DNA of 64,000 nt, taken from a phage. Each line of letters starts with the position of its first letter. The stretch's first letter is position 1. Positions 47,338 to 60,936 of the stretch are shown here, in pieces. The notes under the pieces are model-generated. The model was not told the origin of the DNA and ran no database searches. It worked only from the letters and a program-made list of their open reading frames with translations. The stretch lies in NCBI GenBank assembly GCA_029942545.1, contig GCA_029942545.1_4114.1; one strand, written 5' to 3'. A program made the position numbers and the translations under genes.

Positions 47338-47724
47338 ATGAATACAAGTTCAATCCTAAAAGCAATTGGTGGTGTTTTACTCATTGAAGTAAAAGGTGAG
47401 CCAAAGCTATGCTGTTTAGAAGATATGAAGAATACAAAACACTTCAGTACTGGTCAGATTTTCAATGCCATTCGTATTCTAAATGACAAATCCATTGCTG
47501 ATTATGGTAAAGTTTGGCCTGTATATCAAAATGCTGATGGTGATATCAGTACTGATTGGAAAACAATTGAGGCGGTACGACAAAGTTGTGAGAGTGATTG
47601 GGACTTCATTGTTGAAGTTTGTGATCAACTACAAGAAGATGTTCCAGAAATTGTCGAACGAAAAGAAGTCCTAGCACGACTTGAAAAATTCCGTCACGGA
47701 ACACTACAGTATGACACAATCTAA
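47338..47724 (+). CDS. hypothetical protein (128 aa)
   Basis: ORF track; RBS GGAGA. Confidence 0.6.
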   Translation: MNTSSILKAIGGVLLIEVKGEPKLCCLEDMKNTKHFSTGQIFNAIRILNDKSIADYGKVWPVYQNADGDISTDWKTIEAVRQSCESDWDFIVEVCDQLQEDVPEIVERKEVLARLEKFRHGTLQYDTI

Positions 47725-47773
47725 TCTGCTTATTAAAAATATCTAATTAACATTATATAAAAGGAATTTAAAA

Positions 47774-48079
47774 ATGGAAGACAATGGAATGAAATTTGAT
47801 ATGTTTGAAGGTGTACCAGAGTTCGATTTCAACAAACTTGAAGAAGGTGAGGAATCAGAACTAGTCAGTGTTACACTTAAAGCAGATTCTAAGAAGAAAT
47901 ATTCATCAGCAGTACGTTCACGTTCACAAGAAGAATACGAAACATTTATTGAAAGTATTCATTATGAAACATTCCATCATGCAGATGGAACTCCATATGA
48001 AGTACGTGTAACAGTACTGAAGCCTGAAGTAAATCCAATGGAAAATCTACGTCCTGTTTACTGCTGGGCAAGTCACTAA
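47774..48079 (+). CDS. hypothetical acidic protein (101 aa)
   Basis: ORF track; RBS AAAGGAA; terminator follows. Confidence 0.6.
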   Translation: MEDNGMKFDMFEGVPEFDFNKLEEGEESELVSVTLKADSKKKYSSAVRSRSQEEYETFIESIHYETFHHADGTPYEVRVTVLKPEVNPMENLRPVYCWASH

Positions 48080-48087
48080 TAAACCAA

Positions 48088-48119
48088 AGGACGGGATTTG
48101 TTATCTCGTCCTTTTTTTT
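48088..48119 (+). terminator. intrinsic terminator
   Basis: AGGACGGGA ... TCTCGTCCT stem followed by T8. Confidence 0.8.
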
Positions 48120-48131
48120 GTCTGGAGATGT

Positions 48132-48986
48132 ATGAAACTTTATCTAATCGTTGACTACAATAAGGATTATGCTGGTAACTTCACCGAAGATTCGGATGGA
48201 TATTGCACATCGACTAATGTCAATGTACGTAGCAGTAGTGCTCATGAACATGAATCTTGTAAAAATCTAAAAGATTTTATCGCATACCGAGCATTTGAAA
48301 AGAACTTCTGCCGCAGTAGATATTCGAAGTTTGAGTACCCGTTAATTGATGTTCCTGATGATTTAATGTTCCAGTTAATGCTAACTGGAGTTCAAGATTA
48401 TGATTACATAGCATATAATCATATTACTAAGAAAATTTATATTGGTACATCATCACATGACACTTCTATGTATGCATCATGCCCAGATGATCGAATGAAT
48501 GATAGAAAATCATACTATAGTGGATCAGTTGGTTTAAATGATTCATTAAATAAAAATATATTCTTTGAGTATGTTTATGATTACCATCATGAGAAAAAAG
48601 AACGTGAAGATTACTGTATAGCAATTGATAGTACTAATGGGTATGAAGACGTGAAAGAAGCACTTATGCCGTACATTATTGAAAAGTACTACAAAGATTT
48701 TCAGTACTGTAGTAATTTTCTAATCAGAAATTCTATTATAATCGGTCGCCAATCTAGTGCATACTCTCAGTACTATAATGATTCACCAGTAGCATCGGCA
48801 AATGAAATGTGTGATATTTTACAAATTCCACGTGAAGATATGGCATTCATTTTTACATCTTTTATTGAAGATGATGAATTGTACGTTAAAAATAAACACC
48901 GTTTAATGCCAAGTAAGATTGAAATTATTAGATGCGTAAGCGTTGATATACTGACAAATTTTACTGAAAAAACAGAATATAACTGA
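48132..48986 (+). CDS. hypothetical protein (284 aa), possible distant family B relative
   Basis: ORF track; RBS GGAGA; weak DDLMFQLMLTG. Confidence 0.6.
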   Translation: MKLYLIVDYNKDYAGNFTEDSDGYCTSTNVNVRSSSAHEHESCKNLKDFIAYRAFEKNFCRSRYSKFEYPLIDVPDDLMFQLMLTGVQDYDYIAYNHITKKIYIGTSSHDTSMYASCPDDRMNDRKSYYSGSVGLNDSLNKNIFFEYVYDYHHEKKEREDYCIAIDSTNGYEDVKEALMPYIIEKYYKDFQYCSNFLIRNSIIIGRQSSAYSQYYNDSPVASANEMCDILQIPREDMAFIFTSFIEDDELYVKNKHRLMPSKIEIIRCVSVDILTNFTEKTEYN

Positions 48987-49015
48987 GACAAAGAATAAGT
49001 TAATGATATAATGTA

Positions 49016-49048
49016 AGGTGACAGCAGATGTTGTTGTCACCTTTTTTT
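49016..49048 (+). terminator. intrinsic terminator (or 5' hairpin of a downstream non-coding transcript)
   Basis: AGGTGACA ... TGTCACCT stem followed by T7; an extended -10 (TGATATAAT 49004-49012) sits just upstream. Confidence 0.7.
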
Positions 49049-49588
49049 AATCCTGAAAGGTTCCCATAAGGAAATGATTAAAAGCCTAATCCACTCGAAA
49101 ATGTAGAGGGTAGATGAGTAGTCCTTTCAGTACGAACAGCAGATGAAACCCGTTAGATGATGGCATAGTTTGAACCACTCACGGCAATGCGGCTGTATAA
49201 AGAACTCCAATAGGATAAAGAGAGTTCCTCGATAGACATATAAGGATCGCACCTTACCAATTATCTAAGGGAGATTTCATAAGAAATATGCGGTCGGAAT
49301 TATACAATATAGTTGCGTCCAAATTTTGTGAAATCAAATACAAGTACTGGTCATATGGTATTTGTATTATGTGTCGGGATGTTTAAGACCGACGACCGTT
49401 GCTACAAGAACCGCGATAGAGAGAAACAGAGCAACCCGCTTTCGTCTCGTAAGAGAATTCGTGATATGAACTATGTGAAGGCCACCAGCGTCAAACTTTT
49501 TTGTTCTTTCCCCTGCGGGGGGATGAAATATGCTCAAGCAAACCCCGTCAATATTAATTAAAAGAAAATAGTACTTGTAGAATTAGAC
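49049..49588 (+). other. GC-elevated non-coding island, candidate structured RNA or foreign insert
   Basis: ~540 bp with no convincing ORF, visibly richer in G+C than flanks; several short stems (e.g. GTCGG ... CCGAC); no tRNA T-loop seen. Confidence 0.35.
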
Positions 49589-50209
49589 ATGCGTAGCATG
49601 GTAATTCTACTGATGTTGATGAAATCAACGTCACGTATATTCATTGATGTTTCCATAGGAATAATGATGGCATTTATTAGAAAACAAAAAACTTTTACCT
49701 ATAAGACTTTGGATTTTGTTGATTGTGAAAACCAATTACAAGATGAAGATAACTTTACAGGATTTGTTGTTATTAAAGAAAAAGGATGCATTTCGTACAT
49801 AAAGGAATTACAGAACGGCATTGAAGTTACTTCAGTCAAATTACTTCCTACACAAAAACCAACAATATTAAAAGCACAGTATGGTAATTATTTCGAGGAA
49901 AGATATAGTAATAATTTAATAAGTGTTAAGGCTTATATTATAAAAGGAGAACTAGAAGGAGAATATAGAAAATACAACCCACAAGGAAAATGTGTTTGGG
50001 TTAAATACTTCAATTCAGGAAATGATGTAACATCTGAAATAATTGAGTTTTTAGGTTTAACATGTACCCCTGAAACTCTTCATGATTACAAATTTAATAC
50101 TGAAGAAGAGTTTAATCTGATGATGCGTTATGGTTCACATTTTAAATTTTTGTATGAATATAACATTGACAGTAGTACTTTTGATAAGATAGTACAGAAC
50201 TGTCTATAA
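49589..50209 (+). CDS. hypothetical protein (206 aa)
   Basis: ORF track; alternative start ATG 49664/49667 after AGGA; C-terminal region weakly repeat-like (GEYRKYNPQGKCVWVKYFNSGN). Confidence 0.5.
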   Translation: MRSMVILLMLMKSTSRIFIDVSIGIMMAFIRKQKTFTYKTLDFVDCENQLQDEDNFTGFVVIKEKGCISYIKELQNGIEVTSVKLLPTQKPTILKAQYGNYFEERYSNNLISVKAYIIKGELEGEYRKYNPQGKCVWVKYFNSGNDVTSEIIEFLGLTCTPETLHDYKFNTEEEFNLMMRYGSHFKFLYEYNIDSSTFDKIVQNCL

Positions 50210-50225
50210 CAAAAGGATTTATAAC

Positions 50226-50747
50226 ATGTCGAAGAAGGATACTTCGAACAAACATTCAGTACACTTCAGTACTGGTAAAGATAACTGGACAACTCCAAAA
50301 GATTTCTTTGAAGAGTTAGATGAGTTATGGGGATTTACGCTTGATGCTGCTTGTGTTGATGAGACTGCATTATGTGAGAATTATTTTACACCAAATGATG
50401 ATTCTCTTTCACAGGATTGGGGAAAGAATATAGTTTGGTTGAACCCTCCATATAGTGATTTGAAAACATGGTTATCTAAAGCAGTAGATGCGTATAATAA
50501 AGGGGCAACTGTATTAATTCTTGTACCATCAAGAACGGATACTATAGCTTTTCAGGATTATGCTGCGAAAGTTTGTGATTGTATTTGTTTTATTAAGGGA
50601 AGGTTACGATTTGGTATCCCAGAAGAACCAGAGAAGAAAACAGATTCAGCACCATTTCCTTCGTGTCTGATAGTACTAGATAAGTACTTAACCACTGCTA
50701 AAATCAATTATCTTAAATCTCTTGGATTGGTGATGAAGAATTTATGA
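50226..50747 (+). CDS. phage-type DNA N6-adenine methyltransferase
   Basis: WTTP ... FTLDAAC ... NYFT ... WLNPPYS, with NPPY catalytic motif; typical small phage MTase size. Confidence 0.75.
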   Translation: MSKKDTSNKHSVHFSTGKDNWTTPKDFFEELDELWGFTLDAACVDETALCENYFTPNDDSLSQDWGKNIVWLNPPYSDLKTWLSKAVDAYNKGATVLILVPSRTDTIAFQDYAAKVCDCICFIKGRLRFGIPEEPEKKTDSAPFPSCLIVLDKYLTTAKINYLKSLGLVMKNL

Positions 50748-51277
50748 AAGAAACATGTATATTATCATTTATGAGATGTAACCCAGTCCACAATGGTCAT
50801 GGTTTAGTTTTTGAAAAGGCCAAAACATTACAAGAACAGTACAATGCAGATTTGAAAATATATCTAAGCACCAGTACTGATAATATAAAAAACCCGCTTC
50901 CTCCTGAATTAAAGATGTATTACACTGAGGGTTTCTATCCTTCGGTTCAAGAAAACATTTATACTGAAGATAATCTTTTTGATATAATGCGTGAATTAGA
51001 TGGAAAATATTTAGATGTATTTTTTATATGTGGTTCAGACCGTATTGATTCTTTTCAGAAAACACTTGACAGTTACAATGGGAAGTTGTATAATTTTTGT
51101 AATATAAAAGCAATTCAAGCAGGTATTGACCGCCAATCAAGTCAATATAGCTCAACACAAATGCGTAACTTCGCAAAAAATGAAGATTTTGATAGTTTTC
51201 GTGAGTTTTTACCTGGAAATGACGAGGACTTAAAAATACAATTATTTGAAGACGTTATAAAATACATGAGGAAATAA
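50744..51277 (+). CDS. cytidylyltransferase-like nucleotidyltransferase (possible NMN adenylyltransferase)
   Basis: N-terminal FMRCNPVHNGH (HxGH class) and C-terminal SSTQMR (ISSTxIR-like); ATGA overlap with the methyltransferase. Confidence 0.6.
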   Translation: MKETCILSFMRCNPVHNGHGLVFEKAKTLQEQYNADLKIYLSTSTDNIKNPLPPELKMYYTEGFYPSVQENIYTEDNLFDIMRELDGKYLDVFFICGSDRIDSFQKTLDSYNGKLYNFCNIKAIQAGIDRQSSQYSSTQMRNFAKNEDFDSFREFLPGNDEDLKIQLFEDVIKYMRK

Positions 51278-51279
51278 TT

Positions 51280-51573
51280 ATGTCAGTACTGTTCAAAACC
51301 AATCCAGTACTTTGGGATCAAAATGAGCAATCAGGATTTCGTTCCATCCATGTTGAATACAAAGGTAATACTGTAGTTGCAATTATTGCTAACAAAACTC
51401 TAGGAAACTGGACTGCACAGGTTGTTCCTATGGGATATTCTTACACATCTGATGAGGTTCAATTCCTGGCTGAACTATATCGTCAAGTGCCGTTTATCAT
51501 TAATGTACTAGAAGGTAATGATACATTATCACATGCAGATGTGATTAATTTTCTTGGAAACTTGCATGTGTGA
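51280..51573 (+). CDS. hypothetical protein (97 aa)
   Basis: ORF track; RBS GAGGAAA. Confidence 0.55.
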   Translation: MSVLFKTNPVLWDQNEQSGFRSIHVEYKGNTVVAIIANKTLGNWTAQVVPMGYSYTSDEVQFLAELYRQVPFIINVLEGNDTLSHADVINFLGNLHV

Positions 51574-51853
51574 TGAAATAAATCTTACAGGATATTTTTT
51601 ACAAGAATCAATGATTAAATTTAGTGATAAATTTTCAGTACTGGATGGTATCGAAATGTGGCATGTAAAACCACTGTTCCACACTTTCAGTAAAGAGCAC
51701 AAAATGTTATTGACTGAAGCGAGTAAATCAAATAACATATGTGAAATCAAAATTGGTGTAAATGTCTATAAAGGGATGGTTATCTTTTTTGACAATAACA
51801 GCAACTACTTTTATATTGTTAAGGAGCATTACGTTGACAAATACAAATACTAA
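51566..51853 (+). CDS. hypothetical protein (95 aa)
   Basis: first in-frame ATG 51566; track start 51554 is TTG. Confidence 0.5.
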   Translation: MCDEINLTGYFLQESMIKFSDKFSVLDGIEMWHVKPLFHTFSKEHKMLLTEASKSNNICEIKIGVNVYKGMVIFFDNNSNYFYIVKEHYVDKYKY

Positions 51854-52448
51854 TACATACTTCCGTTATCTTCGCTTAGGTCTTTCCCTACGTCCGATCC
51901 GTGGAAAGTGCGATTCACTCGCTGACCTTGACTATGCATATGCATTACATCATGAAGGTGTACAGTATGTATTGGGTGATTATGGTGAATTTGAAGAAAC
52001 AAATGACAGTACTGGAATTAATGCTGGTGTAGAAAATCTTAACAACATTGCTAACAGTTCTCGCCATGACATTGTGTTACAGATTCAAAACTTTATTGAG
52101 CAACACACAGGCAAACGTGTTTGGTGCTATGTCGGTACTGATGCACAAATGTCAATTTCATTCGGTAACGATGAAGGATATGTTGCACAGCTTATTATGG
52201 ATTTTGAATCTGAAGAGAAGTTTTTAGAATTCAAAGAAAAGATTATTCAGTCACTTGTTGATATGGGTATCCCCGAAGATAAAATGCCAGAAGTCCAAAA
52301 CATTGATGAATTTGTTTTGATTCCATCTGATGAGAAATATGATGCAATGTTTACTGCTCTTAATATTCCAGGAGTTATTGTGGAGTACTTTGATGATGGT
52401 GATGATAGTATCTATATCGATCTAGATGACGATGACGACGATGAATAA
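51834..52448 (+). CDS. hypothetical acidic-tailed protein (204 aa), TTG start
   Basis: AAGGAG 51821-51826 is 7 nt before TTG 51834; C-terminal DDGDDSIYIDLDDDDDDE; track start 51762 overlaps upstream gene. Confidence 0.5.
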   Translation: MTNTNTNTYFRYLRLGLSLRPIRGKCDSLADLDYAYALHHEGVQYVLGDYGEFEETNDSTGINAGVENLNNIANSSRHDIVLQIQNFIEQHTGKRVWCYVGTDAQMSISFGNDEGYVAQLIMDFESEEKFLEFKEKIIQSLVDMGIPEDKMPEVQNIDEFVLIPSDEKYDAMFTALNIPGVIVEYFDDGDDSIYIDLDDDDDDE

Positions 52449-52453
52449 TGTAC

Positions 52454-52482
52454 ATAGCCCGACATAAGTTCGGGCTATTTTT
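52454..52482 (+). terminator. intrinsic terminator
   Basis: ATAGCCCGA-CATAAGT-TCGGGCTAT followed by T5. Confidence 0.8.
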
Positions 52483-52494
52483 GTAAGGGGATAT

Positions 52495-52770
52495 ATGAAT
52501 TATAAAGTTCTACAATATACATACAGTGTTTTGTTTGATTTACATCACAATGGAAGATATCTCAATACAATACGAGAAAACACATTCACTCATACTATCT
52601 GGATTAATCACTTAATAATGATACGTGAATATTTTGTTAATAGTGAGATAATCATTCGTGGTAAAAAACAGAAGATAGAACAAGTTAATAGTTTTGGTGG
52701 TAAATTAGTACTATCATTTATAGATAGTAATACTAATGAAAGATATAGTATAGATTTGGTGGACATATGA
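52495..52770 (+). CDS. family C small paralog
   Basis: N-terminal MNYKVLQYTYSVLFDL; tandem with similar ORFs. Confidence 0.55.
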   Translation: MNYKVLQYTYSVLFDLHHNGRYLNTIRENTFTHTIWINHLIMIREYFVNSEIIIRGKKQKIEQVNSFGGKLVLSFIDSNTNERYSIDLVDI

Positions 52771-53033
52771 ATTATAAAGATTTCCTACTAACATACAAGA
52801 TTATTCGAGATTTAGCACACGACAATGATAGCCCTAGTCTAGAAGACACATGCACTGAAATGATTCATACGATTCGTGGTAAGATTAAAAAAAAATTCAG
52901 TACTGTTATTATTGGTGATGACCATGCAGAATTTTCTGATATAATCATTAGACGTGATGGTAAAGTTGAGGTTCAGTACTACACTGATTTTGGATTTACC
53001 AGTATTCCGTTGGAGATATTCCCTTGGGATTAA
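52767..53033 (+). CDS. family C small paralog
   Basis: MNYKDFLLTYKIIRDL; ATGA overlap. Confidence 0.55.
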   Translation: MNYKDFLLTYKIIRDLAHDNDSPSLEDTCTEMIHTIRGKIKKKFSTVIIGDDHAEFSDIIIRRDGKVEVQYYTDFGFTSIPLEIFPWD

Positions 53034-53335
53034 ATTTAAATGATATACAATTCACTTATAAGATCCTATATGATTTGTATGATGTATACCTTGTTAGTAA
53101 CAACATAGGTTCACATAACCGATCCAAAGAACAACCATTTATTGATTTATATATTGAGTACTTAGATTCAGTAGGTGAATATATAAAAAAGAATTACAGT
53201 ACTTTTATCGATGGAAATGATAAATTCGATTTCTATGGTGTGCAATCATATAATGGTATAATCCATGTTCAATTTCAGGAAATAACCGATAGGGGATTTA
53301 TCGAGATTAAAGTTGTGAAGTTGGTGAATTTATAA
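53024..53335 (+). CDS. family C small paralog (TTG start?)
   Basis: NLNDIQFTYKILYDLYD; no in-frame ATG near the 5' end. Confidence 0.45.
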   Translation: MGLNLNDIQFTYKILYDLYDVYLVSNNIGSHNRSKEQPFIDLYIEYLDSVGEYIKKNYSTFIDGNDKFDFYGVQSYNGIIHVQFQEITDRGFIEIKVVKLVNL

Positions 53336-53345
53336 GAGGTTACAT

Positions 53346-53657
53346 ATGTTATTAAATGATATACAATTCACATACAAATTTTTGTATATCCAATACGCTA
53401 CGGTTGATGCTGGCGAATATCTCTACAGTGAAATCTATCGTTCGGTATGGATAAAGTTTTTGGATGAATTACATGAATATTACCATGATTTGTGTATAGT
53501 TCGTGATAATAAAATATACAAATTCCGCGATATTGTTAGTCATAGCGGTAAGCTACGATTGGAATTAAGTACTGATAGTGATGTTGATTGGATTGGTGTA
53601 AATTTACTGGAGTTGGAGAATGAAAAACAACTTAAAGGAAATACAAGTATTTTATAA
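53346..53657 (+). CDS. family C small paralog
   Basis: MLLNDIQFTYKFLYIQY. Confidence 0.55.
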   Translation: MLLNDIQFTYKFLYIQYATVDAGEYLYSEIYRSVWIKFLDELHEYYHDLCIVRDNKIYKFRDIVSHSGKLRLELSTDSDVDWIGVNLLELENEKQLKGNTSIL

Positions 53658-53904
53658 ATTCTTATACTTATCATATGTAAAAGATGAGTACTATGAAAGT
53701 GTGTATTATTTTTTATGGCAACATTACCGTACTATAGTAAGAGATTTATATATAGGAAAATCTATCATATCCAATGGTGAAAAATGTACCTGTACGGATG
53801 TAGTTAGTTTTAATGGTTCTTTAACACTGTGTTTCAGATGCGATAATAATAGTGGGTCATTTTCATTAAACGTATATCAGTTAGAAGGAATAAATTTTGA
53901 ATAA
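53620..53904 (+). CDS. family C small paralog
   Basis: LKEIQVFYKFLYLSY. Confidence 0.5.
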   Translation: MKNNLKEIQVFYKFLYLSYVKDEYYESVYYFLWQHYRTIVRDLYIGKSIISNGEKCTCTDVVSFNGSLTLCFRCDNNSGSFSLNVYQLEGINFE

Positions 53905-54097
53905 ATGTCCATATTGTAACAGTACTCAATTAGCTCGTTTCCGTTTAGATTCAGACTGGGCGACTGGTGCTGGTGATTTCTTCCCTATTAATGATGATGC
54001 GGAATACACCGAAGAACAGCACAAAGATTTTGATAAATCATGGCGACCTGACATTGAGTGCATTTATTGCCTTAATTGTGAGCGTGTTCATGACTAA
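53897..54097 (+). CDS. zinc-ribbon protein (66 aa), TTG start
   Basis: CPYCNS ... CIYCLNC; AGGAA 7 nt before TTG 53897. Confidence 0.45.
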   Translation: MNKCPYCNSTQLARFRLDSDWATGAGDFFPINDDAEYTEEQHKDFDKSWRPDIECIYCLNCERVHD

Positions 54098-54353
54098 AGC
54101 TGAACTAATAGTTCATACATATAAAATGATATCAAGTACTGAGTTATCATATAGTGCAGATAATCCAGTACTGGATTATTTTGTTGAATTATTGAAAGAG
54201 CATTATATTGGTAAATCACTGAATATTAATAATATTAATTTCACTATAACGGATGTGGGACCAGGAAAAAACGTACTAATTGTATGTATTACTTCAACTG
54301 GTAACCCATTATACCCAATATCAGTAATTTTTGAGGTATTAGGTGATTTATGA
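54090..54353 (+). CDS. hypothetical protein (87 aa)
   Basis: ATG 54090 overlapping upstream stop; track start 53967 overlaps the previous gene. Confidence 0.45.
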   Translation: MTKAELIVHTYKMISSTELSYSADNPVLDYFVELLKEHYIGKSLNINNINFTITDVGPGKNVLIVCITSTGNPLYPISVIFEVLGDL

Positions 54354-54640
54354 ATATCATATTAATACAAAAAACATATACTCTACTGATGAAAGAATAT
54401 ACTAATACTTATGATGAAAAGTGCAGTGCAAATCATAATATGTATGAATTCATTACTCAAGAGTACAGGGATTATATATATGCTGTGTCAGTGGGTAGAT
54501 ATTTCAGTACTAGAAAATACCCAAAACTTCAAATAGTTGATGTTTCTTTTTATTTCAATGGTCATATTACTATTCATAGTTTAGACCAAGATTCAACAAC
54601 GTACTTAAACTTTTCATTTGATGAGGTAATATTTTTATGA
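54350..54640 (+). CDS. family C-like small paralog
   Basis: MNIILIQKTYTLLMKEY; ATGA overlap. Confidence 0.5.
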   Translation: MNIILIQKTYTLLMKEYTNTYDEKCSANHNMYEFITQEYRDYIYAVSVGRYFSTRKYPKLQIVDVSFYFNGHITIHSLDQDSTTYLNFSFDEVIFL

Positions 54641-57777: not shown

Positions 57778-58041
57778 ATGAATATTCAAGATAGATTACA
57801 ATTACTGTACACACTTGAACAGGCTGCTTATGATCTTGTTCGAAAAATCTCAGATGAACTACCTAAAGGAACTAAAGTTCGTGTACGTGAGATGAATTAT
57901 TTTTCTGGAGTAATTGAAGAACAAGTACTAACAGTGAATAAAGTAACATACTATGAATCTGAGTTGTCTATTCAGTGTGAATCTGATGATGGATTAATAT
58001 CATATTATGGAACTGATGTAGATATAGAGGTAATAAAATGA
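57778..58041 (+). CDS. family D small paralog (GK-x-V-R motif)
   Basis: LPKGTKVRVREMNYFSG; ATG 57778; track start 57733 is upstream. Confidence 0.5.
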   Translation: MNIQDRLQLLYTLEQAAYDLVRKISDELPKGTKVRVREMNYFSGVIEEQVLTVNKVTYYESELSIQCESDDGLISYYGTDVDIEVIK

Positions 58042-59180
58042 CCCTTTTGCAAATATATGAAGATTTAATGCACTTATGTAATACAAACGATGCATTCTTT
58101 TATGTGGATCATAAAAGTCCTGCTGGTGGCACGTATCGTGTATTCAGTTATCGTCTAGCATCATACACTGATTTCATGCAACCAAATGCGTTGGAAACCC
58201 GTGGCTCTATGTGGGAAATTGATGAAGAAGGTGAAATGATACGTTGTGCAGCACGTACAATGAAAAAGTTCTTCAATGCTTACGAGAATCCTGCTACAAT
58301 GTTCCCTGCTAACACCACATGCGATGACATTGCGGTAGTGATGCCTAAGTTGGATGGTTCGATTATCAGTACTTACCGTGATAATGATGGTGAGATTCGT
58401 TGTAAATCACATACTGCATTGTATTCTGACCATGCGATTAACAGTACTCGACTTATTAACGAGAACCAGAATTTGTATCAGTACATCGACGAAGCGGAAC
58501 GTTTAGGTTACACAGTTAATATGGAGTATACAAGCCCAGAGTACCGAATTGTATTACCATATCAGGTAGAACAACTGTTTGTACTGAACGTTCGTCATCG
58601 TGTGAGTGGTGAGTTGCTATGTGGTAAAGCACTACGTGATAAGTTTCCATGTCTTGCACAGTACAGTACTAATATGACTGGAAAAGATATTCATCACACT
58701 TTTCCGGTACGAAATACCTTCCGTGAAAGCGTGGAGGAAGTTCATAAAATGCTTGATATTGAGGGTTTTGTGTGCATCCTAAATAATGGGACAATGTGTA
58801 AAATAAAGACTGACTGGTACAGTTCATTACATCTTACAAAAGATAGTATTATTATTGATTCTCATTTATATGAAGCAGTATTAAATGGTTCAAGTGATGA
58901 TTTAAAACAATTGTTCAGTACTGATGAATATGCTATGCAAAAGATATTAAGAATGGAACAATTGGTATTTTCGTGCTATAATGCATTACAAGATGAAGTA
59001 GAAAGCTTCGTCAAGGAACACAAGCACTTGGAGCGAAAGGAATTCGCAATGAAGGTTCAGGAGTGTTTAACTAATGAACTGAATCGTCAGGGCTTGGCCT
59101 TTGCAATGTATAACAATAAGAAAGTTGATTACAAAGAGACTCTTATAAAATACATGAAAATTGTACTAAAGGATTTTTAG
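58038..59180 (+). CDS. rnlA: RNA ligase 1 (T4 RnlA-like)
   Basis: 380 aa; N-terminus and nucleotidyltransferase lysine motif VMPKLDGS align with T4 Rnl1 as recalled (from memory, no search); conserved C-terminal WYSSLH-like region. Confidence 0.85.
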   Translation: MTLLQIYEDLMHLCNTNDAFFYVDHKSPAGGTYRVFSYRLASYTDFMQPNALETRGSMWEIDEEGEMIRCAARTMKKFFNAYENPATMFPANTTCDDIAVVMPKLDGSIISTYRDNDGEIRCKSHTALYSDHAINSTRLINENQNLYQYIDEAERLGYTVNMEYTSPEYRIVLPYQVEQLFVLNVRHRVSGELLCGKALRDKFPCLAQYSTNMTGKDIHHTFPVRNTFRESVEEVHKMLDIEGFVCILNNGTMCKIKTDWYSSLHLTKDSIIIDSHLYEAVLNGSSDDLKQLFSTDEYAMQKILRMEQLVFSCYNALQDEVESFVKEHKHLERKEFAMKVQECLTNELNRQGLAFAMYNNKKVDYKETLIKYMKIVLKDF

Positions 59181-60003: not shown

Positions 60004-60936
60004 ATGCCAACTATCACACTAACAGTTGGATTGCCTGGGTGTGGTAAAACTACATGGGCAGTGCAAGAGATTAAAAAAGCCAAATCCAAGACTATCAACA
60101 TCAACCGTGATGATATTCGTGAATCTATGGCTGGGTCACATGATGCTTACAAATTCAACGATGCTAATGAGCAGTACGTAGATAATTTACAGTTCAGTGC
60201 AGCAAATTCAGCAGCAGAGAATGGTTGGAACATCATAGTATCCGATACAAACCTTAAACCACATTTCCGTAATCTCTGGAAAGTATGGGCTACAGATAAT
60301 GGTTATGATTACAAAGAAAAGAACTTCTATGATGATTTTGTACCTAATGAAGACCGTGGTGCAGATGTTCATGAATTCTTTAAGATTAAAGAGTTCGTAA
60401 AACTTTGTAAGAAATATAACCTCCAGCGTGAGCGTTCAGTACCAGATGATATCATTGACAAAATGGCAGATACGTACTATTATAGTAAAGCATTACACAT
60501 TGGTTACTATGGTAATTCACGCGAAGCTGCTATCATCGTTGATATCGATGGAACTCTTGCTCATAAATGGGGTCGTAATCCTTACGATGAAAGTACTGTT
60601 CTTCAGGATACACCTGATGAAGAAGTTATTTTGTCTATTATCGCTGAAGCAGTTTTTCATAAACGCAAGATTATCGTCATGAGTGGGCGTACTGAAGGGT
60701 GTCGTGCGGATACCGAACAGTGGCTTAAGAATTGGGGTGTTCCTTACGATGCATTGTTTATGCGAGATATCGATGATAAACGTCCTGATGATGTTGTAAA
60801 ATTCGACCTGTACATGAAAAATGTGGTTGATCATTACGATGTTAAAAAGGTATATGATGACCGCGATCAAGTTGTATTCATGTGGCGTAAGCTACTTGGG
60901 TTGAAAGTTTTCCAAGTGGCTGAAGGAAATTTCTAA
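60004..60936 (+). CDS. pnk: polynucleotide 5'-kinase / 3'-phosphatase (T4 Pnk-like)
   Basis: N-terminal P-loop GLPGCGKTT; C-terminal phosphatase motif VDIDGTLA (DxDGT); 310 aa; directly downstream of RNA ligase. Confidence 0.85.
   Translation: MPTITLTVGLPGCGKTTWAVQEIKKAKSKTININRDDIRESMAGSHDAYKFNDANEQYVDNLQFSAANSAAENGWNIIVSDTNLKPHFRNLWKVWATDNGYDYKEKNFYDDFVPNEDRGADVHEFFKIKEFVKLCKKYNLQRERSVPDDIIDKMADTYYYSKALHIGYYGNSREAAIIVDIDGTLAHKWGRNPYDESTVLQDTPDEEVILSIIAEAVFHKRKIIVMSGRTEGCRADTEQWLKNWGVPYDALFMRDIDDKRPDDVVKFDLYMKNVVDHYDVKKVYDDRDQVVFMWRKLLGLKVFQVAEGNF

Follow-up and report, generated by a model that had tools for sequence, protein, structure and literature searches.

A Dam-family methyltransferase gene and an overlapping HIGH-superfamily nucleotidyltransferase gene in an Asteriusvirus-type jumbo coliphage

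The window, a stretch of 64,000 nt of phage DNA, comes from an Asteriusvirus-type jumbo coliphage and is 99.9% identical to published genomes of this type, in which the gene pair described here is already labelled "DNA methyltransferase / cytidyltransferase". Identical or near-identical copies of the 177-aa product of the second gene have also been deposited, with the label cytitidyltransferase. The two open reading frames (ORFs), 50226-50747 and 50744-51277, both lie on the plus strand and share an ATGA tetranucleotide, which confirms the overlap observed in the initial annotation. The locus is composed of the following features:

49015..49043, + strand: terminator-like hairpin with a 13-bp stem and a T run, closing the upstream unit (pattern scan)
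49589..50209, + strand: ORF of phrog_16210, of unknown function, first of the unit (the E9.1 annotation starts at 49667)
50226..50747, + strand: Dam-family DNA N6-adenine methyltransferase, 173 aa (Pfam, PHROG, NCBIfam)
50744..50747, + strand: ATGA start/stop overlap (read from the sequence itself)
50744..51277, + strand: stand-alone HIGH-superfamily nucleotidyltransferase, 177 aa, PHROG 3041/395
50768..50800, + strand: motif 1, FMRCNPVHNGH, the HxGH NTP phosphate-binding loop (consensus F-G-R-F-N-P-P-[TH]-x-G-H)
50888..50914, + strand: K-N-P-L-x4-K motif, residues 49-57 (column statistics)
51032..51082, + strand: G-S-D-R (residues 97-100) and Y-N-G (residues 111-113), family-specific, presumed acceptor-binding region
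51122..51166, + strand: G-x-x-R (residues 127-130) and S-S-T-x-x-R (residues 136-141), the C-terminal phosphate-binding motif of HIGH nucleotidyltransferases
51280..51573, + strand: 97-aa ORF of phrog_14956, of unknown function, directly 3' of the pair and syntenic in relatives
52454..52478, + strand: terminator-like hairpin that ends the unit (pattern scan)

The two hairpins, which presumably act as terminators, bracket the unit that holds both genes, and the pattern scan found five such sites against 1.2 expected. The two genes are probably co-transcribed. The ORF at 49589..50209 has no Pfam match, no tRNA was found in the window, and Rfam gave no match in 48000-52500, the 600-nt upstream gap included.

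The first gene of the pair encodes a clear member of the phage orphan Dam methyltransferases (PF05869 / TIGR01712), a group of ~170 aa with the NPPY motif, from which it differs in nothing notable. It scores 111.1 bits against Pfam PF05869 (gathering score 28.1; E 6e-32), matches phrog_111 with an E of 6e-57 and narrowly misses the TIGR01712 equivalog (93.1 bits versus a cut-off of 97.05). The catalytic NPPY is located at residues 73-76 (nt 50442-50453), and the gene has a dN/dS of 0.10-0.13. The Pfam score and the NPPY motif bear out the DNA adenine methyltransferase that the initial annotation had recognised. The GATC site is mildly depleted in the window, with 121 copies observed versus 193 expected.

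The 177-aa, 20-kDa protein belongs to the HIGH superfamily, as it possesses a Rossmann-like alpha/beta fold with a parallel sheet and both phosphate-binding motifs. Over its full length it matches phrog_3041 (E 1.2e-55) and phrog_395 (E 3.2e-23), and a HMMER search of the whole library gave 3,690 family clusters at 50% identity. This large family is specific to phages and is the one labelled "cytitidyltransferase" in T4-like cyanophages. Both H16-N-G-H19 and S136-S-T-Q-M-R141 are present, and they are conserved in 267-268 of 269 relatives. The HxGH nucleotidyltransferase proposed at the outset therefore stands on fold, motifs and family membership.

Column statistics for the motifs were computed from the 269 retrieved family members. 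In motif 1, the consensus residues G10, R11, P14, G18 and H19 are found in 250, 263, 264, 262 and 267 members, respectively; the window protein departs from this consensus with M10 for G, shared by 8/269 members, and C12 for F/M, shared by 13/269. The columns of the K-N-P-L-x4-K motif are similarly uniform (K49 239, N50 252, P51 262, L52 256 and K57 266 members). This motif aligns to KNPMF...ER of Helicobacter pylori PPAT, and its spacing equals that of NPFTAGER in the archaeal NMNAT MJ0541. In the central region, G97 (266), D99 (265), R100 (266), Y111 (265) and N112 (263) dominate their columns, and no counterpart of G-S-D-R or Y-N-G was scored in the NMNAT, PPAT or GCT models; Y111-N112 are candidate residues of a pyridine-nucleotide pocket, by position only. 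The C-terminal columns comprise G127 (264), R130 (268), S136 (267) and R141 (268), and S-S-T-x-x-R aligns to ISSSIVR of PPAT. All the family-invariant residues (R11, H19, N50, K57, D99-R100, Y111-N112, R130, S136 and R141) are kept in the window protein, which is predicted from its motifs to be catalytically intact. In addition, the gene is under purifying selection, with a dN/dS of ~0.08 (0.075 against G10-type orthologues). One orthologue of the G10 type is gp393 of phAPEC6. A pseudogene reading was rejected because of this ratio and the intact motifs.

Assignment to a subfamily was examined against curated models, PDB sequences and structures. On this evidence the 177-aa protein could not be placed with NadD, NadM, NadR or PPAT, nor with the glycerol/choline-phosphate cytidylyltransferases. 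Its top two NCBIfam matches are both NadD models, TIGR00482 at 18.7 bits (cut-off 112.45) and NF000840 at 19.2 bits (cut-off 150), and nothing was found against TIGR01527, TIGR01526, PRK01153 or TIGR01510 at E<=1. PF01467 reached 15.9 bits, under its cut-off of 21. The GCT/CCT signature motifs RTxGISTT and RYVDEV were not found in the 177-aa sequence, and the protein as a query against PDB sequences gave no match at E<=10. The HxGH and SSTxxR motifs are not diagnostic of an NMNAT, being common to PPAT, NadD, NMNAT, FAD synthetase and cytidylyltransferases. Given the NadD scores and the missing PDB relative, the NMN/NaMN adenylyltransferase that the initial annotation had read from these motifs was not supported in that form. 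Structure comparison, which it had proposed as a check, supported the superfamily fold and singled out no subfamily: the fold is about equally like those of PPAT, NMNAT, sugar/polyol-phosphate cytidylyltransferases and ArgRS and is thus not discriminating, and a Foldseek search of BFVD returned matches (E 1e-11 to 1e-28) to its own unnamed family only.

The family profile, searched against PDB sequences, matched H. pylori PPAT (E 5e-6), NadD (1.5e-3), the MJ0541 NMNAT (2e-3) and NadM (3e-3), the PPAT value showing relatedness, not membership; the GCT structure 1coz scored 14.6 bits, through the HxGH loop only. Weak NCBIfam matches among 39 members were to NadD TIGR00482 (29/39), NMNAT PRK01153 (18/39), NadR-NMNAT (15/39), PPAT (12/39) and FAD synthetase (10/39), with no TagD/CCT-type model among the 25 matches listed for these members. 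As NMN/NaMN models are the commonest weak matches and TagD/CCT models are absent from those listed, the best match is not to a sugar- or glycerol-phosphate cytidylyltransferase, the result that the initial annotation had named as telling against it. Compared with the NMNATs of phage CBB, the family HMM scored 16.9 bits for NadM-Nudix and 15.2 bits for the NadR-like enzyme, over the N-terminal 70 residues only, and blastp gave E values of 0.02-0.06 for these two proteins.

Depleting NAD+ is one of the main ways in which bacteria resist phages, and phages are known to rebuild it by three pathways. NARP2 consists of Nampt and Nmnat (bioRxiv 10.1101/2024.02.11.579819), and NARP3 of PnuC and a NadR-like bifunctional enzyme (PMC13464706). 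Our search for such partners covered the complete relative EC22.5-2 (96.7% DNA identity over a 3-kb region), the window and 82 kb of E9.1 (a 99.9% relative). Using CBB Nampt, tblastn gave no match at E<=10 in any of the three, in agreement with the earlier remark that no phosphoribosyltransferase partner is visible in the window; a Nampt or Nudix partner elsewhere in the genome, which had been thought worth looking for, was not found in the complete relative either. No NadM-Nudix homologue was found in the complete genome of the Asteriusvirus-type group, and queries with the NadR-like and PnuC proteins of CBB (CBB_361, CBB_362) gave no homologue there, with no match better than E 4.6. The site syntenic to the NadM-Nudix/Nampt cluster of relatives holds protease and HslV genes in this group, in which a Sir2 gene is kept. 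Neither the gene pair of NARP2 nor that of NARP3 was found in the complete genome, and the gene context gives no support for a known NAD+ reconstitution pathway.

NadM-Nudix lies beside Nampt in Eneladusvirus and other Rak2-like relatives (fHe-Yen9-04, SE_PL, KP13-7, XbC2 and pEa_SNUABM_12). Relatives with these genes still carry the nucleotidyltransferase gene, ~25 kb away, and a further NMNAT in such genomes would look redundant; CBB possesses the NadR-like/PnuC pair as well as NadM-Nudix and Nampt, which shows that two NMNATs can coexist in phages of this kind. The nucleotidyltransferase family is also present in a phage of the genus of PA5oct. One infection study reports that a host NAD-biosynthesis operon, pncA-pncB1-nadE, is the most strongly up-regulated during PA5oct infection (PMC7318152).

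The family has its main reservoir in cyanophages. It occurs in 559 phage records, of which ~80% are from cyanophages (assigned to Synechococcus or Prochlorococcus, or simply named Cyanophage); Pseudomonas and enterobacterial jumbo phages carry it too. Nampt matches are uncommon in cyanophage records, with Synechococcus outside the ten commonest genera. Among the members, 174/269 have more than 60 extra residues, the largest being multi-module proteins of up to 1,200 aa, and many of the extended marine proteins bear an N-terminal leader resembling the T4 CTS and are found in virions. The conserved neighbour in marine phages encodes a ligase-like DUF6267 protein and is not a gene of NAD metabolism. 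Searching PDB with the DUF6267 profile found nothing, hhalign gave a probability of <1% against both the window RnlA and the E9.1 DNA ligase, and the AF2 model of DUF6267 was poor. No DUF6267-nucleotidyltransferase fusion was found among the 269 retrieved members, leaving the composite phrog_455 profile as the sole evidence of fusion; moreover, a Rosetta-stone comparison of the window neighbours (47338-53033) with the C-terminal modules of long members showed no similarity. No published activity was found for any member of the family, and surveys of polyvalent proteins and jumbo phages do not mention it. Cyanophage papers speculate on GCT or NMNAT roles, including NMNAT-like virion proteins (PMC9602691, PMC10665884).

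Our tentative best guess is that the 177-aa protein may serve NAD+ synthesis as an NMN/NaMN adenylyltransferase acting alone, because the weak matches of its family are most often to NMN/NaMN models. The Sir2 gene kept by a phage group that lacks the NadM-Nudix/Nampt cluster of its relatives, the host response to PA5oct and the NMNAT-like role raised in cyanophage papers make this guess reasonable. Against this reading, no NMNAT cut-off is reached and true phage NMNATs score only 15-17 bits with the family HMM; the co-occurrence with NadM-Nudix in relatives, the scarcity of Nampt in cyanophages, their DUF6267 neighbour and the M10/C12 replacements also count against it. In the proposed mechanism, the orphan Dam-family methyltransferase, whose gene neighbours that of the nucleotidyltransferase in one early-style transcription unit, would methylate adenine in phage DNA. 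The nucleotidyltransferase would bind an NTP, most likely ATP, via the HxGH loop and SSTxxR. With K-N-P-L...K, G-S-D-R and Y-N-G keeping a small acceptor in place, it would transfer an NMP onto the phosphate of that acceptor and release pyrophosphate. The likeliest acceptor would be NMN or NaMN, yielding NAD+ or NaAD. A host-made mononucleotide (from PncB, NadR or LigA turnover) would provide the substrate, and the enzyme, acting alone, would boost the final committed reaction by which NAD+ is resynthesised, with no NARP2- or NARP3-type pathway formed. A wider and more doubtful proposal is that the whole family represents an unrecognised single-enzyme phage route to NAD+ (or another adenylylated cofactor) beyond NARP1-3: marine members would be packed into the capsid via the T4-like leader together with DUF6267, injected, and active before phage gene expression, members in jumbo enterobacterial phages would be free early proteins, and the Asteriusvirus-type copy would be the sole NAD+ synthetic enzyme left after the loss of Nampt/NadM-Nudix and NadR/PnuC.

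An acceptor other than NMN or NaMN, such as 4'-phosphopantetheine, FMN, an ADP-ribose-related compound or a sugar/polyol phosphate, is possible but rather unlikely; the enzyme would then have no link to NAD+, and either the "cytidyltransferase" label would be nearer the truth or the substrate would be new to the superfamily. Curated PPAT, FADS and GCT models are likewise not reached, the most frequent weak matches point to NMN/NaMN adenylyltransferases, and no glycosyltransferase, CoA or flavin gene adjoins the gene in the contexts examined. In a different role, which we regard as improbable, the family and a nucleic-acid ligase-like enzyme would form an end-repair or end-modification kit. The family member would regenerate the nucleotide cofactor of the ligase or adenylylate a macromolecular end; the kit would be capsid-packed and injected in marine T4-like phages, and the jumbo-phage copy would be a free-standing remnant working together with the RnlA/Pnk or ligase that the phage itself encodes. 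As to the two replacements in motif 1, M10 for the near-invariant G10 and C12 for the usual F/M could alter activity, and their rarity in the family would fit an impaired window copy. Such impairment is extremely unlikely, given that the other invariant residues are all intact, that M10/C12 recurs in several related sequences (the window, EC22.5-2 and P0005) and that dN/dS measured against G10-type orthologues is 0.075.

The initial annotation had further proposed that the two genes form a compact, translationally coupled anti-defence operon. In such an operon, anti-restriction methylation and NAD+ replenishment would be kept at a fixed stoichiometry. The ATGA overlap is real, the two genes share one unit bracketed by terminator-like hairpins, and Rak2-like phages whose proteins are as little as 33% identical still have them side by side. 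However, the flanking ORFs are syntenic in these phages too, so that descent of the whole block explains the adjacency. A 4-nt overlap occurs at 13/79 nearby junctions, and as the commonest junction type here it was rejected as a sign of functional coupling. The junction itself varies: Yersinia phage fHe-Yen9-04 has an 8-nt gap, the genes of Salmonella phage SE_PL overlap by 8 nt, and in EC22.5-2 a 786-nt inserted mobile gene separates the methyltransferase from the nucleotidyltransferase. Moreover, no Dam gene lies beside a family member in the Pseudomonas, cyanophage or metagenomic contexts examined, and the NAD+ activity is itself putative. A dedicated coupled operon is therefore very unlikely; of the original proposal, the overlap and probable co-transcription remain, and the overlap appears to reflect dense gene packing and shared transcription, not a dedicated two-enzyme anti-defence module.

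For the window itself the practical message is modest, since the gene pair is known in public annotation and the anti-defence operon lacks support from context. The family, whose label has been uninformative and misspelt ever since cyanophage genomes were first published, is far more widespread than the known NAD+ pathways. Should it prove to be a stand-alone NMN/NaMN adenylyltransferase, the number of phages that manipulate NAD+ would be much larger than current counts, and the cyanophages would do so by injecting the enzyme. Otherwise, ocean cyanophages have among their core genes one that performs some other chemistry and is linked to a ligase-like partner.

Among known systems, the closest is the PHROG 3041/395 family itself (S-PM2, P-TIM68, S-SSM4 CYXG_00145, Serratia phage BF, PBECO4 and 121Q gp418; HMM E 1e-55), in which the window protein is a bare 177-aa domain, whereas most marine members have a C-terminal extension. 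NadD resembles the 177-aa protein in the G-[AS]-D that follows strand 4 and in I/Y-S-S-T-x-x-R; however, the 177-aa protein lacks the long insert before ISST, and no nicotinate-stacking W-Y pair can be recognised in it. Compared with CoaD (PPAT), R-G-L-R is replaced by G-S-D-R and there is no CoA context. In contrast to NadM and the archaeal NMNATs (MJ0541, Francisella tularensis NadM-Nudix, KVP40 NatV and the NARP2 Nmnat), the protein has no Nudix domain, and its G-S-D-R and Y-N-G are unrelated to the NadM central region. The NadR-like NMNAT/NR kinase of NARP3 (Bas30_86/87; PMC13464706) belongs to the same superfamily, but the 177-aa protein has neither a kinase domain nor an accompanying PnuC; what it may have in common with the NadR/PnuC system is the proposed biological theme of phage-encoded NAD+ rebuilding.

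ORF1 and ORF2 lie within a unit of ~3.4 kb, with the following features.

49015-49043: terminator-like hairpin (sequence pattern), left bracket of the unit
50226-50747, plus strand: ORF1, predicted Dam-family N6-adenine methyltransferase, 173 aa (PF05869, phrog_111, NPPY)
50744-51277, plus strand: ORF2, predicted HxGH nucleotidyltransferase, 177 aa (motifs, phrog_3041/phrog_395)
52454-52478: terminator-like hairpin (sequence pattern), right bracket of the unit

As the initial annotation held, ORF1 is clearly predicted to be a Dam-family N6-adenine methyltransferase, matching Pfam PF05869 with 111 bits and phrog_111 with an E-value of 6e-57, with NPPY at residues 73-76. Its stop codon overlaps the start of the 177-aa ORF2, as also described there, the two sharing the tetranucleotide ATGA in the sequence. 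Both genes are under purifying selection, with a dN/dS of 0.075 for ORF2 and 0.10-0.13 for ORF1. Over the 3-kb stretch 49500-52500, identity reaches 99.9% with Escherichia phage vB_EcoM_E9.1 and 94-99.8% with UB, JP4, PBECO4, 121Q and phAPEC6, all Asteriusvirus-type jumbo myoviruses. The gene pair is already present in public annotation: the records of these six phages label ORF1 "DNA methyltransferase" and ORF2 "cytidyltransferase" or "putative cytitidyltransferase". In the window (1-64000) of this phage, which has its own Dam-family methylase gene, GATC is mildly depleted: there are 121 sites, where base composition predicts ~193.

Since the hairpins bracket both genes, together with an ORF of unknown function (49589/49667-50209) and 97-aa and 228-aa ORFs, co-transcription of ORF1 and ORF2 is plausible. 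The ATGA junction is no special feature: in 32 kb of E9.1 annotation around the pair, 13 of 79 junctions are 4-nt overlaps, and more than half of the 79 overlap. Yersinia phage fHe-Yen9-04 has the same gene order at 33% protein identity, with an 8-nt gap, and Salmonella phage SE_PL has it at 51% identity, with an 8-nt overlap. Both also share the unknown flanking ORFs, so the conservation is block synteny within one phage lineage. Outside the Rak2-like lineage, no Dam gene adjoined the nucleotidyltransferase family in the contexts examined. In the closely related Escherichia phage EC22.5-2, a complete genome of the same phage group, another ORF lies exactly between the two genes.

OR845138.1 91669-92454 (L007:43669-44454, the retrieved EC22.5-2 locus): 261-aa ORF with CapR-homology and DUF723 zinc-ribbon domains

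Because ATGA junctions flank this ORF on both sides and dS is 0.63 in the adjoining nucleotidyltransferase versus 0.04 in Dam (~16-fold), the sequences suggest a mobile, homing-type gene with co-conversion. Altogether, the common ATGA overlaps, the block synteny, this insertion and the lack of an adjoining Dam gene in the contexts examined outside the lineage lend no support to the proposed anti-defence operon of methyltransferase and nucleotidyltransferase.

Several further features surround the pair. A perfect sigma-70 consensus (TTGACA, 17 nt, TATAAT; 12/12) lies inside the ORF2 coding sequence at 51066-51094 on the plus strand, overlying the Y-N-G motif codons, and could independently drive the downstream small ORFs. 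The ~600 nt at 48987-49588 lack a convincing ORF, begin with a strong terminator-like hairpin, contain unusually G+C-rich segments for a genome of 33% GC and have no tRNA or Rfam match; the E9.1 annotation places four tiny minus-strand ORFs in the matching region. At 52495-54640 on the plus strand, at least six paralogous ORFs, each 88-103 aa long, stand in tandem, with similar N-termini (e.g. LNDIQFTYKILYDLY, LNDIQFTYKFLYIQY and KEIQVFYKFLYLSY), several being joined by start/stop codon overlap. Two RNA-processing genes sit 7-9 kb downstream of ORF2.

58038-59180, plus strand: T4 Rnl1-type RNA ligase (RNA_lig_T4_1 and T4_Rnl1_C)
60004-60936, plus strand: polynucleotide kinase/phosphatase, Pnk (AAA_33 and HAD_PNKP)

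Judged by their domains, they resemble the tRNA-repair pair of T4. The 64-kb window contains no tRNA genes. The position of Pnk is offset by 273 nt relative to E9.1, indicating an indel between the two genomes.

The FMRCNPVHNGH and C-terminal SSTQMR motifs noted initially are indeed present in ORF2 (residues 9-19 and 136-141). ORF2 matches two PHROGs that bear the name "cytidyltransferase", phrog_3041 (E 1e-55) and phrog_395 (E 3e-23), and scores only 15.9 bits against Pfam CTP_transf_like (cut-off 21). In NCBIfam, NadD models take the top two places, one with 19.2 bits (cut-off 150) and one with 18.7 bits (cut-off 112), and no PDB relative was found by sequence. These searches confirm the HIGH superfamily without subfamily assignment. 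Positions that hardly vary among 269 family members are R11, P14, G18, H19, K49-N50-P51-L52 and K57 in the first half, and G97, D99-R100, Y111-N112, G127, R130, S136, R141 and F152 in the second. ORF2 retains all of them, its only departures being M10 (G in 250/269 members) and C12 (F/M in the family); it is thus predicted to be an intact enzyme, from a branch of the superfamily that is distinct and specific to phages. HMMER, run exhaustively over 1.84 billion representatives, yielded 3,690 relatives (2,454 with E<=1e-10), and tblastn located the gene family in 559 phage records (375 Synechococcus, 59 "Cyanophage" and 22 Prochlorococcus phages), the remainder including Rak2-like enterobacterial and PA5oct-like Pseudomonas jumbo phages. 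As phage enzymes go, the family is very abundant.

The family gene directly follows a DUF6267 (PF19782) gene, downstream of it, in cyanophages, in Methylophilales phage Melnitz and in metagenomic T4-like contigs. DUF6267 occurs in 410 phage records; the two match adjacent parts of a single profile, phrog_455.

L019:4673-5941, L022:4760-6004, L017:1323-2579, L002:2830-3753 (loci retrieved for comparison): DUF6267
Proteins P0021-P0389 (N-termini), L002:3740-4909, L017:2965-4917: leader examples

DUF6267 has >8,000 metagenomic relatives and conserved KWDG, EGFV and VKLVDR motifs. DNA and RNA ligases are over-represented among its weak structural matches; the protein, encoded always beside the nucleotidyltransferase gene, may represent a ligase-like activity that has gone unrecognised in T4-like cyanophages. 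In most marine members of the nucleotidyltransferase family the protein is extended at its C-terminus; the longest, at up to 1,200 aa, are lysine-rich and multi-module, with domains of the DUF5824 and P-loop kinase types. Many of the marine proteins open with a leader, for example MKTFKEFINEA or MKKYRQLVESLP. These leaders and the DUF6267 N-terminus (MLNFSGFLAEDK) resemble the sequence of 10 residues that targets T4 internal proteins to the capsid, with an [LI]-x-E protease site. In T4, targeting depends on positions 4 and 7 and cleavage on positions 8 and 10 (PMC9026906). Such leaders would explain the repeated detection of the family protein in virions of cyanophages S-SZBM1, S-SCSM1, S-CBWM1 and S-CREM2. 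ORF2 has no leader, and the available part of the phAPEC6 study does not mention its orthologue, gp393, among 62 virion proteins. A family role tied to the ligase-like partner or to nucleic-acid repair seems improbable to us.

The jumbo phage CBB, related to the Rak2-like group, carries NadM-Nudix (CBB_113) and Nampt (CBB_115) genes near Sir2, and a NadR-like NMNAT (CBB_361) adjoining PnuC (CBB_362) (PMC5259590), resembling NARP2 (Nampt plus Nmnat) and NARP3 (PnuC plus NadR-like) modules, respectively (bioRxiv 10.1101/2024.02.11.579819; PMC13464706). Five carriers of an ORF2 homologue (fHe-Yen9-04, SE_PL, KP13-7, XbC2 and pEa_SNUABM_12) have an adjacent NadM-Nudix/Nampt pair ~25 kb away, so the homologue there is not the NARP2 Nmnat. 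The initial annotation saw no partner phosphoribosyltransferase in the window; the wider tblastn search of the complete EC22.5-2 genome (352 kb), the window and 82 kb of E9.1 gave no match better than E 4.6 for Nampt, NadM-Nudix, NadR-like NMNAT or PnuC, while recovering Sir2 at 3e-64. Where CBB (L004, 52-61 kb) and GAP32 have NadM-Nudix and Nampt, the syntenic site of E9.1 (L005:9143-15700, 81.5-88.1 kb, outside the window) has protease and HslV-family peptidase genes, and retains Sir2 overlapping a separate Nudt16-like Nudix hydrolase gene, followed by PhoH. Thus, this phage group has lost the canonical NAD+ synthesis modules and kept an NAD+-consuming enzyme, Sir2, together with ORF2, which is equally compatible with a stand-alone NAD+-related role and with an unrelated function.

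The enzymes encoded by pncA, pncB1 and nadE constitute the Preiss-Handler route minus the NadD step. A host operon for NAD biosynthesis, given as pncA-pncB1-nadE in the summary of the study (PMC7318152), showed the strongest induction during PA5oct infection. The family is carried by a phage of the same genus as PA5oct, a circumstantial point in favour of the NAD+ reading of ORF2. Tentatively, at somewhat below even confidence, we propose that ORF2 is an ATP-dependent adenylyltransferase whose acceptor is a small phosphorylated molecule, NMN or NaMN being the likeliest, and which would work alone on mononucleotide made by the host. Use of a different small-molecule substrate is somewhat less likely. 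Of the original reading, the methyltransferase and the HxGH nucleotidyltransferase stand; NMN/NaMN adenylyltransferase is no more than the best available guess.

With the family profile, H. pylori PPAT comes first, at full length (E 5e-6), followed by NadD (1.5e-3), MJ0541 NMNAT (2e-3) and NadM (3e-3), whereas glycerol-3-phosphate cytidylyltransferase gives 14.6 bits at the HxGH loop only. When 39 members were scanned singly, none of the 25 NCBIfam families listed was a TagD/CCT-type model.

Sub-threshold NCBIfam matches among 39 family members
Generic adenylyl/cytidylyltransferase domain: 36/39
NadD TIGR00482: 29/39
NMNAT PRK01153: 18/39
NadR-type NMNAT: 15/39
PPAT: 12/39
FAD synthetase: 10/39
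Archaeal NMNAT: 9/39

Three motifs, G-R-F-N-P-x-[HT]-x-G-H, N-P-L-x4-K and Y-S-S-T-x-x-R, look by eye like those of archaeal NMNAT, whereas the central G-S-D-R ... Y-N-G is unique to the family, and genuine phage NMNATs (the NadM-Nudix and NadR-like proteins of CBB) score only 15-17 bits against the family HMM. Together, the profile scores and the 39-member scan place the family in the adenylyltransferase part of the superfamily, nearest to the NMN/NaMN adenylyltransferases and PPAT while belonging to neither.
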